Shown: positions 4,971 through 60,982 of the stretch, in pieces
Layout: each line of letters starts with the position of its first letter
How positions within the stretch are numbered: the stretch's first letter is position 1
From: Eledone cirrhosa
Lineage: Eukaryota
Reading direction: 5' to 3'
Length of the DNA stretch: 64,000 nt
Assembly: GCA_964016885.1 (NCBI GenBank)
Contig: OZ024743.1
Coordinates: 328,414,001 to 328,478,000, forward strand
Program-made: the position numbers and the translations under genes
The notes under the pieces: model-generated
What the model was told of the DNA's origin: nothing
Database searches by the model: none
The model's input: only the letters and a program-made list of their open reading frames with translations

Positions 4971-5060
4971 CATATCTGACGATCTTTCGATTACAGAGTC
5001 AGGTTTCATCTATAATATGTCTTGCCTCGAGCTGATCGATAATGAAACATATGTAATATG
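4971..5060 (+). ncRNA. Type I hammerhead ribozyme (canonical core) in a short (TA)n-flanked insert
   Basis: Stem I CATAT/ATATG, core CTGACGA, stem II TCGATTA/TGATCGA, GAAA, palindromic ACATATGT stem III, GUA site. Confidence 0.8.
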
Positions 5061-6065
5061 TTATTAAATATGTTATGATACAACATTGAATCCTTGTTCC
5101 TTATCCTTATAGTATATATATATATATATATATATATATATATATATAGTATAAAAGAGAAAACACAGGTAAGCATTAAAAGAAGGATTTTATCCAGGTA
5201 TTTACGATCGTTTCATTGGTAAGTGCAACCTTATATTGCTATACTGCAAATAGCAGCCACTCAATTATGATTGTTGTTCACAGTCCAAATTTTCAAAATA
5301 GTGAGTAAGTTACTCTTGAAATAATTCTTAATATATAGAGAAAAACATTTATTTGGAATTGTATTTACTAGTATAGAGAGAGAGGAATCAGACGGTGAGG
5401 GGACAAACGGAATAGTATAGAGAGAGAGGAAGGGGGAAGAGGTAGGAAGTAGAGTGACAAACTGAGATGGAGGGAGGGGTAGAAGTGGAAGGATTCTTCG
5501 GTCAGTTTTGATAGCAGACTTCATGTCGTGGAATGTAGTGAGTTAAAGAGAATTAAATTGATCATAGTGGGAGGGATGGATAGAGAGGGAGAGAGAGAGT
5601 GGGGGGAGATATAAAGAGATAAATATATATATATATAAAATAAAGATAAAGATAATAATGACAAAAATAAAAGCAAAGAAGGGGGTGAGAAAGAAGAAAA
5701 GAAAAGATAGCCAAGAAGGGGAGGGAAGGAAGAAAGAAAACGAAGAAATAGAAGAGGAATGAGGGAGAAGAGGGGGATATATGTATTGGTTTTGTGGGTA
5801 ATTAAAAGGGTTTAGATACAAGAGGGTATAAAGTCTAAGTATATGCAGTTTGTCAGTTGGTAGTAAGAGGTTAAGGGTTCGATTTGTAGTGCGAAAACTT
5901 CTCTTTGAGTCTATGGTTACAATAAATTGATCTTTCGATTTTATTGTTGAGTAACTTATTCTTCGAACTCAAGATGTGGAATAGCTCAAAGTCGCATAAT
6001 CGACAGCTTCTCATACCACTCCGATATGGGGGCGCGTTCGATAATTTTTTTAACTTCAGGGTGTA

Positions 6066-7805
6066 TTGATGGTTAATTTCCCTCATATATTAGACCGAGT
6101 GATAGCACAAATGAAGAATAAACTAGTGATTAAACTATGGGGTAACGCTACCGAAACAATTAAGTGGTTTAACAATATAGCTAACAAAGAAGTATCTAAA
6201 TTTATACAATTTGACATTAACGATTATTACTTATCTATATCCCCCAACACCTTGGATAAAGCCTTAGCATTCGCCAAAGCCAATTCTGACATAACAGACG
6301 ACGAGATAAAAATCATATTAGCTGCTAGGAAAACAATAATTAAATTTGAAAACGCCTATTGGAAACGTAAGGATAGATTAAATAACTTTGACATCACGAT
6401 GGGGGCTAACGACTCGGCTCAAGTCACAGATTTAGTAGGTATTTACATAGCCCATAGTTTACAAAGTGAGTTTAGCGACCTTCACGGTGGAATCTACAGA
6501 GACGACGCCCTTCTCCTAGTTAAGAACCTAAATAACCAGAGCATAGAAAGACTCCGTAAGAATATTAGAAAGACTCTCGGAAAACTAGGTCTTAGCATAA
6601 CGTATGAGTATAGCACTAAAACAGTTAACTTTCTAGACGCGACGCTTAACCTAAATACGGGACTTATAAGACCTTTTCACAAGATTAATGAAAACTTAGC
6701 ATACATCAACTGTAACTCAAACCACCCACTATCAATAATTAAATCCATTCCACGCAGCATATCCCTTAGGATCTCCCGCCTCTCGTCTAACCGACAAATC
6801 TTCGAAGAACATGGAGAATACTACAATACCGCATTAGACAAGGCAGGCCACTTAGATAGAGTAGAATATATAGATGAAAGCCTCCGTGAAGCGCACACGA
6901 ACACGCATAACACAAACTCCGGTAACACACGCACACACGCACTTACGCATAGAACTGCAAAGTATACGGCAAATAGAAATACAACATCGAAATCAAACAA
7001 GTCACGCAGTAGAAAATATATTTGGTATAACCCCATATTTAACACCTCTATTAGTACTAACCTACCCTCTACCTTCTTTAGAATAATAAATAAGCACTTT
7101 CCAGATTCACATAGATACAGCAACATCCTTAACACTAAATCTATTAGACTATCTTACTCCACGGCACCAAATATAGAGGCACACATTAAGATGCTTAACG
7201 CTAAAAAGATACATAACAACACCAAAACGCAAATTTACAATAATAACAATACAATCACCACCGAACACAACAGAATATCTAATACACAACCACCCGCTAA
7301 TAGGCAAACAAAACGTAACACACTTGTACAGGCATCGCAGCCCACCAATAATGCCAAAGTTGCCCATGACAAGAATTGTAACTGCCACCTACCTGAAACC
7401 TGTCCATTACATAATGAATGTATGCAGTCTAACCTGGTTTACCAATGCACAGTGGAATCAGACAACCAGAAATAGTATTACATCGGAGCGACTGGGAATA
7501 CATTTAAAGCCCGTTGGTATACACACCGTTACGCAATGAAACATTCCCAGCATCGTTATGTAACTACCCTTGCAAACAAGACCTGGCAACTGAGGGAAAG
7601 TAACTATCAATACACCCTGAAGTGGAAAAAATTATCGAACGCGTCCCCATATCGGAGTGGTATGAGAAGCTGTCGATTATGCGACCTTGAGCTATTCCAC
7701 ATCTTGAGTTCGAAGAATAAGTTACTCAACAATAAAATCGAAAGATCAATTTATTGTAACCATAGACTCAAAGAGATGTTTTCGCACTACAAATCGAACC
7801 CTTAA
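6066..7805 (+). pseudogene. PLE reverse transcriptase + Cys linker + GIY-YIG endonuclease, 5'-truncated, one in-frame TAG at 7473-7475
   Basis: FDINDYY, ITMGANDSAQ, GIYRDDAL, FLDATL, SNHP; CNC...CPL...C; LVYQC...*YYIGATGNTFKARW; CRLCDLE; ORF 7536..7805 continues in the same frame. Confidence 0.9.
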
Positions 7806-8375
7806 CCTCTTTCTACCAACTGACAAACTGCATATACTTAGACTTTATACCCTCTTGTATCTAAACCCTTTTAATTACCCACAAAACCAATACATATATC
7901 CCCCTCTTCTCCCTCATTCCTCTTCTATTTTTTCGTTTTCTTCCTTCCTTCCCGCCCCTTCTTGGCTATCTTTTCTTTTCTTCTTTCTCACCCCCTTCTT
8001 TGCTTTTATTTTTGTCATTATTATCTTTATCTTTATTTTATATATATATATATTTATCTCTTTATATCTCCCCCCACTCTCTCTCTCCCTCTCTATCCAT
8101 CCCTCCCACTATGATCAATTTAATTCTCTTTAACTCACTACATTCCACGACATGAAGTCTGCTATCAAAACTGACCAAAGAATCCTTCCACTTCTACCCT
8201 TCCCTCCATCTCAGTTTGTCACTCTACTTCCTACCTCTTCCCCCTTCCTCTCTCTCTATACTATTCCGTTTGTCCCCTCACCTTCTGATTCCTCTCTCTC
8301 TATACTAGTAAATACAATTCCAAATAAATGTTTTTCTCTATATATTAAGAATTATTTCAAGAGTAACTTACTCAC

Positions 8376-58578: not shown

Positions 58579-58677
58579 ATGTATGTATGTATGTATGTAT
58601 GTATGTATGTATGTATGTATGTATGTATGTATGTATGTATGTATGTATGTATGTATGTATGTATGTATGTATGTATG

Positions 58678-60648
58678 TTTTTCTGGTTTTATGATTTCAC
58701 AAATTTTTTCCAATAGAGAGAGAGAGTCAGTTTCTAACATAGACACAAGATTCTCTCATTGGAATTTTCACATCAACTAGGTAGATATGTATCCATGTCT
58801 GCATACATGCATGTGTATATATGGATGTTATTGTATGTGTAGATGTGTATGTTTTGAGTTGTATGTGTGCATGTGTATATGCTTAGTATCTGTACATGTG
58901 TATATGCAGTTATTAGATGCAACATTTTTATAATGTTTTACATACTTTTACTGTTAGTTCTGCAGATGTTAGTTCTGCAGAGTCTGCACCTGTTATCACA
59001 TCTAGGTGTTTTGCCTGCATCCCTATCTCTTTTGTGAATCAGGTATTTCGTCTTAATTTCCTGTTCTTGGATTGCAAAAGCGTATACTTCAAAGTGGGAG
59101 CCAATATAGCGGTTGTTGGTCCAAGATAGACTACTTTCCTTATCTATATTACTCTCACTCTGGAGCTTCCTGGCAACATATCCATGCATGGTTTTTTGCT
59201 GATAAGCATGTAGTTTTTCATCCACTGATTCACTGCGATACTGCTGAGCGACTTCCCTGGGTGTGAGTTTTTGACTGTCACACAGGGAATATCTCTCGAG
59301 GAGTTCCTTCCCAACTCTCATGATCTTATCTGTTTCATGCAGATAGACTTGCTCGAGATACGGGCTCTACGCTTCGAGGTTCGTAGATGTTATCGGAGGG
59401 ATATGATGCGACATTCAAATGTTGTCTGGACTGATGTTAGGCCTCTGCCTCCCTGCTTACGTTTCAAGTAAAGGTGGTCTATGTCACTGTTGATGTGGAA
59501 GTTTCCGGTGTTGTTTAGTATTTTTCGAGTTCCAATATCAACTGCTCAGATTTTGTCTATCGTCCATTTGAGTATTCCAAACGTTGGTGTTAGGACAGGC
59601 ACAGCAAACACATTGTGAGCCACTGTTTTGTTTTGCGCAGAGAGTTCCGATGACGAGATCTTTCTTAATCGGGTGTAGTATTCCCTGGTTACGCGTTCTT
59701 TATTACAGATACCATTATAGGATATGTTCTCATCTATCCCCAGGTATCTGTAGCAGTCCTCATCAGATATCAATGAAACAGTTAGGCCATTGTTGACAAT
59801 GTTGCTAGATTGGGTTGTTGTTTTTCCCCGCTTTACAGTCATATATGAGTATTTATCTTGGCCAAACTCCATTCCTATATCCTTTGAGAACGTTGTAACC
59901 AGGTCAAGATTTTTCTTCATCTCATCCATGTTCTTGGCATAGAGTTTCAGATCATCCACAAAGAAAGTATGGGTTAGGTTCGTATTTCTATCCTCCTGTG
60001 AGCCAATGATGTATCCTTCACATTTCTTGAGCAGAAAGGACAAGGGGTTTAATGACAGGATGAATAATATCACAGAGAGACTGTCTCCCTGAAATATACC
60101 CCTGCAATATTTTATTTTATCAGTGAAAATAGAGTGCCCTCTCTCTGTCTTTAACCTTAGGATAGTAGCCCAAGAAGAGGACAGCCTCTCTATGGCTCTG
60201 ATAATAATGTCTGTCTCCTTTAAGAACTTGTTAGTAGAGGTCAGTAAGATACCTCCGATAGAATACCAGTTTTTTGTACCAGTAGTCGACAATCATGTCT
60301 CTTCCTGGTGTTTTCTTATCTTGGAGTTTTCCTATCACAGTCTCAAGGGTACCCTCACTTATTTCGTATTTTTTTGTTGTAGTGTAGGAGCAAGCAATAG
60401 TTCTTTCGGATTTCTTTTAGCCACACTGCATCTTGGTTGAAATTCTTCTTTCTACCCCATATTTTGCTCCCAAAGGAATCTGTCTTTCTGGGATGGGGCC
60501 TTAGTGACACTTATTATTTTGTTCTTCAGATCTCTATAGACTGATGTTTGGTTTCGTCTGAATCTTTTATTAAGCACTTTTCTCTCATCTACCTTCTTCA
60601 AGTATCGGCGTTTTTCGCTAACAGCTCTCAATTCTTGTTTGAGGGTTA
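58678..60648 (-). mobile_element. R4/Dong-like LINE family B, 5'-truncated with internal deletions
   Basis: GIFQGDSLS, HTFFVDDLKLY, CRLC; 3' UTR matches 52405-52665; RLE domain missing at ~58955. Confidence 0.88.
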
Positions 60649-60695
60649 TGTATGTATGTATGTATGTATGTATGTATGTATGTATGTATGTATGT

Positions 60696-60982
60696 ATCTT
60701 GGTTAAGAGAGTGGGACTGGCTTTGTGCAGTGCCTTTGCTCACTATAAAAGCTTCACGGCACAGGCATTGCTTTATATCTGGAGATCTCTCTGCACTTGT
60801 CGACACATGGTACCATGGGCCCAGCATTATGTGTCAATAATTGTCACAAGTGTAGTGTTTGTACCAGAGTTTTCAAGTCGCTGGCTTGACTAAAAAGTCA
60901 CACTCGTTCAGCGCATCGGTAGGGGTTCTCCTACATGGATATAAAGTAGTGGCCGTACTCGAAAACGAGTTGGCAGCCACCA
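60696..60982 (+). mobile_element. Truncated copy of the (TATG)n-associated non-coding element
   Basis: Highly similar to 52041-52327. Confidence 0.75.

Follow-up and report, generated by a model that had tools for sequence, protein, structure and literature searches.

The genome of the octopod Eledone cirrhosa is rich in microsatellites, and a 64,000-nt stretch of it (contig coordinates 328,414,001-328,478,000 in a genome of 3.0 Gb; the window, below) carries retroelements of several kinds embedded in simple repeats, which raises the question of what rule assigns each element to its repeat. A preliminary description of the window had proposed that three endonuclease classes divide three repeats without overlap: Penelope-like elements (PLEs) with a GIY-YIG nuclease in (TA)n, Tx1-type long interspersed nuclear elements (LINEs) with an apurinic-like endonuclease (APE) in (TATC)n, and R4-like LINEs with a restriction-like endonuclease (RLE) in (CATA)n. 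Genome-wide samples point to a different rule. Several families each sit preferentially in one short repeat, in a fixed strand and phase, probably by means of their own integration machinery, and we hold with good confidence, as part of the same reading, that target preference follows family lineage and not endonuclease class, the classes sharing repeats. The insertions in question are the following (RT, reverse transcriptase; ORF, open reading frame; LTR, long terminal repeat).

5143-8661, plus strand: Hydra-type PLE (RT and C-terminal GIY-YIG), frame 6054-7802 with one in-frame stop, inverted pseudo-LTR 5143-6085, flanked by (TA)n at 5108-5153 and 8662-8701
14268-14380, plus strand: (TATC)n tract, 5' of the Tx1 array
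14381-20188, plus strand: full-length Tx1-type LINE of family A, ORF2 (APE, RT and zinc finger) open, ORF1 frameshifted at a poly-A run
20282-26023, plus strand: full-length Tx1-type LINE, copy B, both ORFs open, between (TATC)n 20189-20281 and 26024-26087
26088-26724, plus strand: 5'-truncated Tx1-type LINE of family C, then (TATC)n 26725-26743
40955-44109, minus strand: degraded Naiad-type PLE fragment (N-terminal GIY-YIG, then RT), (TA)n at both ends
51721-52326, minus strand: element X, 606 bp, non-coding and non-autonomous, in (CATA)n
52407-53020, minus strand: 5'-truncated R4/Dong-like LINE of family CATA-4
53051-54455, minus strand: 5'-truncated R4/Dong-like LINE of family CATA-2
54527-58578, minus strand: near full-length, frameshifted R4/Dong-like LINE of family CATA-2 with RT, CCHC knuckle and RLE
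58679-60646, minus strand: R4/Dong-like LINE of family CATA-4, 5'-truncated and with an internal deletion
60698-60981, minus strand: 5' half of element X, the array being closed by (CATA)n 60985-61090

Between 14268 and 26743 the three Tx1 copies form a head-to-tail series in (TATC)n. A second such series, in (CATA)n and running from 61090 to 51629, holds the four R4-like copies (two families, two copies apiece) and one and a half copies of element X, with (CATA)n on both sides of each R4-like copy. Copy B of Tx1 is the only one with both ORFs open; the R4 and PLE copies are all broken. The uniform repeat and orientation reported for the trio and for the quartet are confirmed, but each group is a single tandem array, so a shared strand is expected, and the two arrays and two PLEs amount to four independent loci. 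Likewise, the (CA)n, (GA)n and (CAA)n tracts of the window are free of these elements as described, but they are 32 of its 128 tracts and four independent loci would miss all of them with p = 0.32, which makes their absence uninformative.

The repeat background was taken from 60 evenly spaced 10-kb stretches (600 kb), in which perfect tracts of at least 16 bp were counted; they make up 5.6% of the bases (33,611 bp), and the 1,193 tracts include 615 of AT, 143 of AC, 47 of ACAT, 39 of AG, 16 of AAT and 8 of AGAT. Each family was sampled through the 30 best-scoring genomic matches to a terminal query, the query copy being removed where present; a 3' flank was assigned to a repeat when 14 of 16 bases agreed with it, or 12 of 14 in the case of Naiad, and 5' junctions were called against non-truncated copies only. 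If insertion were indifferent to motif, flank use would be proportional to repeat abundance; it is far from proportional (binomial p of 1e-7 for Hydra and below 1e-22 for the LINEs). The targets are TAT(C>A) for one clade of Tx1 and (ATT)n for another, (CATA)n for one R4-like lineage and (TAA)n for a second, and (TA)n for the Hydra and Naiad PLEs.

Among the Tx1-type elements, family A is followed by (TATC)n in 14/30 copies, by (TA)n in four, by another repeat in one and by non-repeat sequence in 11, and the flank begins with TAT in all 30; family C is followed by (TATC)n in 23/30. Family D has ATT at the 3' side of 27/29 copies and at the 5' side of 16/20, and Tx1 copies ending in (ATT)n were also found in the background stretches. 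Exact whole-genome counts of the Tx1 3' signature followed by 12 nt of repeat, which leave the (ATT)n class outside, gave 8,287 for TATC, 520 for TA and 283 for TC/TG (the latter two including doubles) and 0 for reversed-pattern controls; with doubles removed the shares are ~92%, 5% and 3%. (TA)n tracts are ~75 times commoner than those of (TATC)n; per tract, the excess of TATC over TA is roughly 1,400-fold. Nine copies hand-picked in imperfect targets have target-site duplications of 9-20 bp and no tail, which refutes for Tx1 the idea that the repeats are 3' tails only. In trees of C-terminal regions (the RLE domain for R4-like proteins) with midpoint roots, the TATC and ATT families of Tx1 stand on opposite sides of a long branch (support 92/100). 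A separate (TC)n-specific Tx1 family is not supported: 22 distinct TC-flanked loci share TATC-type 3' ends, several of them with TATC at the 5' side. One Tx1 copy in the background stretches ends in (TAG)n; this divergent single copy (L188:5604, minus strand, 40-66% identity in ORF2) is possibly a further target class.

ORF2 of the window Tx1 copies matches Pfam PF03372, PF00078 and PF13966, with human L1 ORF2 as its best solved relative (E 3e-48). A zinc knuckle in ORF1 is a feature of the Tx1 clade; the window ORF1 matches PF00098 at E 0.002 and 0.05, under the curated cut-off. No named Tx1 reference (Tx1L, Kibi, Koshi) was among the 93 homologues. A weak alignment (E 0.004) of the family A endonuclease with an L1 loop-graft structure puts SNRSGSSR at the specificity loop studied in PMC1950540; the endonuclease of the ATT family has TNRIGSSR there and is 61% identical to that of family A over the domain.

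Tx1 ends tend to gather. Of the first 100 TATC-flanked ends listed, 60 lie within 13 kb of another (4.6 expected), and close pairs share the strand in 35/35 cases. Copies A and B of the window (16490-19924 against 22325-25759) are ~90% identical over the first 800 bases of ORF2 and 98-99% over most of the rest, and several genomic copies show a like switch of identity; such switches suggest recombinant subfamilies. At a larger scale, TATC-flanked ends at ~26.0-30.2 Mb and 50.9-54.2 Mb of contig C1 (loci L381-L414) run 21 consecutive times on the minus and 17 times on the plus strand, and neighbours 13-500 kb apart share the strand in 28/33 cases (p 7e-5). An abundant short interspersed element follows the same orientation trend (12 plus and 1 minus against 4 plus and 8 minus; Fisher p 0.004 by copy and 0.06 by locus; 14 stretches sampled from the plus-strand domain), and the only Tx1 matches in the minus-domain sample (two, at one locus) are on the plus strand, contrary to the trend. 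These megabase runs suggest a regional effect of transcription or replication.

The two R4-like CATA families have CATA at the 3' flank in 23/29 and 24/29 copies and, in truncated copies, at the 5' junction in 16/20 and 15/19. For R4-TAA the corresponding values are 29/29 and 14/19; its search query included at least 12 bases of the tract, which may favour TAA-flanked matches, and these were trimmed before counting. Over all loci examined the R4-like ends form four clusters, two with CATA (55/62 and 40/45) and two with TAA (33/33 and 26/27), besides three singletons. CATA and TAA families separate in the tree with support of 100/99, the TAA families grouping with insect and fish proteins, although none of the grouped proteins is named R4 or Dong at its source. 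The window proteins have RT and zf-RVT by Pfam, a CCHC knuckle, and C-terminal RHD, RPD, E and K motifs that we take to be those of the restriction-like endonuclease; the C-terminus found no match among solved structures, and full-length relatives (~1,150 aa) gave no N-terminal zinc-finger match. Among named relatives the nearest comes from Argonauta hians, with 73% identity across 31% of the query. More distant relatives of the CATA lineage came from metagenomes, 17 in all, of which 14 are readable past the ORF (3' sides only). Four of them (L415, L416, L424 and L425), at 39-52% protein identity, end directly in (CATA)n; in L430 the tract lies further downstream, and L428 has a short ACATACATA. 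As far as sequence can tell, the CATA-linked R4-like families are a deep separate lineage with relatives also in unrelated metagenome contigs.

Element X is likely mobilised by the R4-like families. It is followed by ACATA in 27/29 copies, TA-rich targets included, and inserts into (TA)n, pure or mixed, with greater frequency than the LINEs (TA at the 5' flank in 6/29); it has no similarity beyond chance to the R4 copies, its longest frame is 81 aa, and Rfam has no family for it. At 10/30 X loci, on nine contigs and with differing flanks (L267, L272-L276, L280 and L282-L284), a composite was located ~740 bases upstream of the X match; it joins half of X (the 5' part) through ~430 bp of imperfect CATA/TA/CA repeat to a full X. 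Over the half-X and the repeat together, identity is 94-99% for most pairs of composites, and the exact signature occurs in 9/88 of the X 5' ends examined. To judge by these alignments, the composite is a unit that moves microsatellite DNA as cargo to new loci. By eye, the 5' end of X (52326-52295, minus strand) folds into a stem-bulge-hairpin, with GATGGCTGCCCC variants in L049, L050, L067, L186 and L211, and a family related to X keeps the 5' stem through compensatory changes, again without an Rfam match; a fold like that of hepatitis delta virus (HDV) was tried by eye and rejected for lack of fit. A diverged relative of the 3' half of X (~75%) at 30773-31136 (plus strand) ends with GACCTG-ACATA in a TA-rich tract.

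The preference of the PLEs for (TA)n extends beyond the window: copies elsewhere end in (TA)n in 28/29 cases for the Hydra type and 24/29 for the Naiad type. In the Hydra-type translation, CNCHLPETC, CRLC and CNH fit the Hydra linker (CxCX5C), CxxC and CxH around conserved E and N. Upstream of the RT, the Naiad-type fragment has CIDKKCIIC and IVYISET..SIGERLNEH, which fit CX2-5CxxC and GIY-YIG; in this degraded copy DKS occupies the DKA position and the CxC linker motif was not located.

These family-level targets do not map onto the endonuclease classes. Since Tx1 uses (TATC)n and (ATT)n and R4-like elements use (CATA)n and (TAA)n, the scheme of three classes for three repeats fails, as does the statement that no element occurs in the repeat of another group: (ATT/AAT)n is common to APE and RLE elements, and Tx1 spills over into (TA)n and (TC)n. 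The class-level partition was rejected when Tx1 copies ending in (ATT)n and RLE elements ending in (TAA)n turned up in the evenly spaced stretches, and 30 loci of each confirmed the Tx1-ATT and R4-TAA families. The two meet tail to tail in one tract, with a Tx1-ATT end at 6/30 R4-TAA loci and the converse at 3/30 Tx1-ATT loci, plus one with RTE; the density of Tx1-ATT ends is 9.1 per 100 kb in the vicinity of R4-TAA copies, compared with a background of 0.8. Clustering of flanks, in which a strict complexity filter kept 952 of 3,351 so that fractions are lower bounds, finds at least 10 recurring unrelated families adjoining (TA)n. Beside Tx1-ATT and R4-TAA copies, the ends of at least two other unclassified, recurring elements also lie in (AAT)n (L323, L324, L329, L330, L345, L182 and L230).

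The suggestion that the elements enlarge these repeats, and thereby help explain the microsatellite load, holds only in its first part. Repeat DNA is added through duplications and through the cargo of the X composite, but the amount is small against a load of 5.6% that is mostly (TA)n and (CA)n: the 600 kb hold 22 ends of LINEs or X, which at 15 bp apiece come to 330 bp, ~1% of the 33,611 bp, with PLE-type insertions outside this sum. As an explanation of the overall load, the elements are not supported. Most sampled tracts touch no element; an element end adjoins about 15/35 CATA tracts (by eye) and 2/8 TATC tracts, and the share of elements in rare-motif tracts may be larger. The added DNA likely matters for the rarer tetramers and not for the total.

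In the mechanism that we propose, the endonuclease would nick the strand that lies opposite TAT in the case of Tx1 and opposite ATA in that of R4; target-primed reverse transcription, by analogy with the known biology of these clades, would follow. Choice of site by the endonuclease is stated in PMC4494074. In the CATA group the terminal ACATA of the RNA would likely pair with the nicked (TATG)n strand, and a short element-encoded 3' end is likely there, given the ACATA that follows X. Each insertion would split its tract into two usable targets and so lead to arrays like those of the window, while the duplications and the ~430 bp of the X composite would supply the gain in repeat DNA. The TAT/ATA core common to all main targets may explain the leaks.

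Several observations weigh against lineage-specific targeting or limit its reach. Family A of Tx1 is loose, with its 11 non-repeat and four (TA)n flanks; family C has TATC at only 3/7 of its 5' flanks; and the background abundance of TATC rests on 8 tracts only. Among the first 100 TC/TG Tx1 matches listed, none begins with (TG)n. The length of R4 duplications is unreadable within pure repeats, and 8/14 metagenome relatives lack CATA within the 3' sequence examined. Samples of 30 best matches tilt toward young copies. Sharing is also uneven: TATC-Tx1 and CATA-R4 copies are seldom tail to tail (1/60 R4-CATA loci and 0/60 Tx1-TATC loci), and few recurring families adjoin (CA)n (4/56 and 5/41 flanks). 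Because these two groups mix so little, part of the separation first described is real.

That separation, the mapping that holds within the window and the ~15/35 sampled CATA tracts that adjoin an R4 or X-type end are what speaks for the original model, in which three classes divided the repeats without overlap and their activity explains the load. We now consider it very improbable: it is already contradicted at class level by at least two targets per LINE class, both classes being on (ATT/AAT)n, by hundreds of occurrences of Tx1 in (TA)n and (TC)n, by an addition of ~1% of repeat bases, and by the APE element Waldo, for which parts of PMC3812793 give ACAY as the target in insects. Hardly better are the chances that insertion is loosely targeted and that copies outside repeats are purged or decay faster. 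The third of Tx1-A copies found in non-repeat sequence would agree with this, and the megabase orientation bias of retroelements hints at a host filter, but copies 100% identical at the 3' end are already biased, strand and phase are constant per family, non-repeat targets still start with TAT, and a filter of this kind would not distinguish TATC from ATT or CATA.

A rival that applies to R4-like elements and X has more to commend it, although we judge it unlikely: pairing of the 3' end of the RNA, as ACATA or as co-transcribed repeat, would be the main selector among the nicks of a poorly specific enzyme, in place of read-out by protein. The near-constancy of ACATA after X whatever the target, and the readier entry of X into (TA)n, speak for it. 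Pairing is not general, however, as Tx1-A is biased without a repeat tail, and an N-terminal Myb-like domain has been proposed for targeting in R4/Dong proteins (in the relevant part of PMC7998251); protein read-out and RNA pairing can coexist. Least probable of all is that the repeats are merely element-encoded 3' tails, with the tails of neighbours mimicking 5' flanks. Many 5' flanks are indeed the 3' tract of a neighbouring copy, and in one full-length Tx1 (L159) a long tract follows the 3' end while the 5' side lacks one, but this explanation is already refuted for Tx1 by copies in unique sequence with clean duplications and no tail, and it is at odds with solitary truncated copies that have repeat 5' flanks and with the sampled tracts, most of which adjoin no element. 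Targeting by family lineage thus remains our preferred reading. A broader picture, which we offer tentatively and would not yet bet on, is that of an octopod guild of young retroelements reading TAT/ATA-core repeats from fixed strands, with an ancient, undescribed (CATA)n-specific R4-like lineage shared with distant animals, X ferrying ~430 bp of repeat, tracts being split by insertion, and a large share of (CATA)n, (TATC)n and (AAT)n tracts being self-made.

Other features of the window include hammerhead-like motifs and fragments of further elements.

4312-4900, plus strand: two related segments (4312-4497 and 4714-4900, 87% identity), each with a hammerhead-like core; (TA)n at 4917
34817-36419, strand not assigned: hammerhead-bearing tandem unit with a Hydra-type PLE LTR fragment (35571-36419), starting at (TA)n 34777-34816; core at 35123 (minus)
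39405-39769, plus strand: RTE-like 3' fragment, then a long (GAA)n tract
13255-13570 (plus) and 26789-26854 (minus): related RTE-like fragments

A hammerhead descriptor found two candidates in the window against none in 20 shuffles. The minimal type I motif at 35123 (minus) is a convincing hammerhead candidate by its sequence, and that at 8907 is doubtful; the cores near 4336 and 4737 were paired by eye and missed by the descriptor. The Rfam hammerhead models gave no match in the whole window at the gathering score and none in 2000-14300 and 30700-52500 at E<=1. That PLEs and hammerhead elements lie in or end at (TA)n applies to both PLEs, which are (TA)n-bounded, but not to the LTR fragment at 35571-36419, which does not itself touch (TA)n and lies within a (TA)n-bounded composite (34817-37493). 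The RTE-like fragments, presumably of that clade on the basis of a C-terminal motif, were absent from the first account. Large inverted repeats of up to 1.5 kb and 98% identity (45570-47057, 44110-44313, 8734-9065, 33626-33905 and 3918-4311), most of them bounded by (TA)n, are probably PLE-type inverted insertions. Tandem arrays at 27591-30774, 1399-2108, 11219-11522 and 36420-37497 have units of 47, 81, 78 and 457 bp, respectively; the last has copies that are 100% identical and ends at (TA)n.

Two ideas that are often merged come apart in these data. Low-harm targeting of repeats, a strategy already proposed for multicopy sequences (in a part of PMC4640811), fits; a causal role of retroelements in the high load is unsupported except perhaps for the rarer motifs. 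In practice, markers on these tetramers should often be expected to have repetitive flanks. Microsatellite targeting as such is known for Kibi, Koshi, Waldo, Mino and Dong (parts of PMC3812793 and PMC4494074), and further related works are PMC9115989 and bioRxiv 10.64898/2026.07.22.740005. Dong-R4, L1-Tx1 and Penelope elements were recently active in Octopus vulgaris, the covered part of that report containing no target analysis (PMC13282606). Among the papers listed by literature searches, none appeared to describe Tx1 in (TATC)n or Dong in (CATA)n; Repbase and supplements may record such targets. The new details are the (TATC)n target of Tx1, the deep (CATA)n R4-like lineage and the X composite with its ~430 bp of microsatellite; the (TA)n bias of PLEs was already known.

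The Hydra and Naiad PLEs agree with the published elements in domain order, linker motifs, pseudo-LTR, inverted structure and (TA)n preference, and we found no difference from them in the part of PMC8557442 that describes these features. Like Kibi in (TC)n, Koshi in (TTC)n and the crocodilian Tx1 elements in (TTCC)n/(TTTC)n (parts of PMC4494074), the Tx1-type elements here are two-ORF APE LINEs whose target varies by sub-lineage; unlike them, they use (TATC)n and (ATT)n, leak into (TA)n and (TC)n, and live in an octopod host. Dong, an RLE element of the R4 clade, uses (TAA)n in most insects, molluscs and cnidarians (parts of PMC7998251 and PMC3812793), and the clade is described as having an N-terminal Myb-like domain and a 5' HDV-like ribozyme (parts of PMC7998251 and PMC3774820). 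The R4-like elements share with Dong the RT-CCHC-RLE order and the residence in microsatellites, and two families are on the canonical (TAA)n, whereas the window families are on (CATA)n and form a separate deep branch, unlike Dong sensu stricto. Waldo uses the same (ACAT)n repeat, but it is an insect APE element (parts of PMC3812793), while the element that occupies this repeat here is of the RLE type. The young, open-frame Tx1 relatives that are 61% identical in the endonuclease and differ in TATC or ATT, and the R4-like CATA and TAA families, are natural pairs for tests of how specificity changes.

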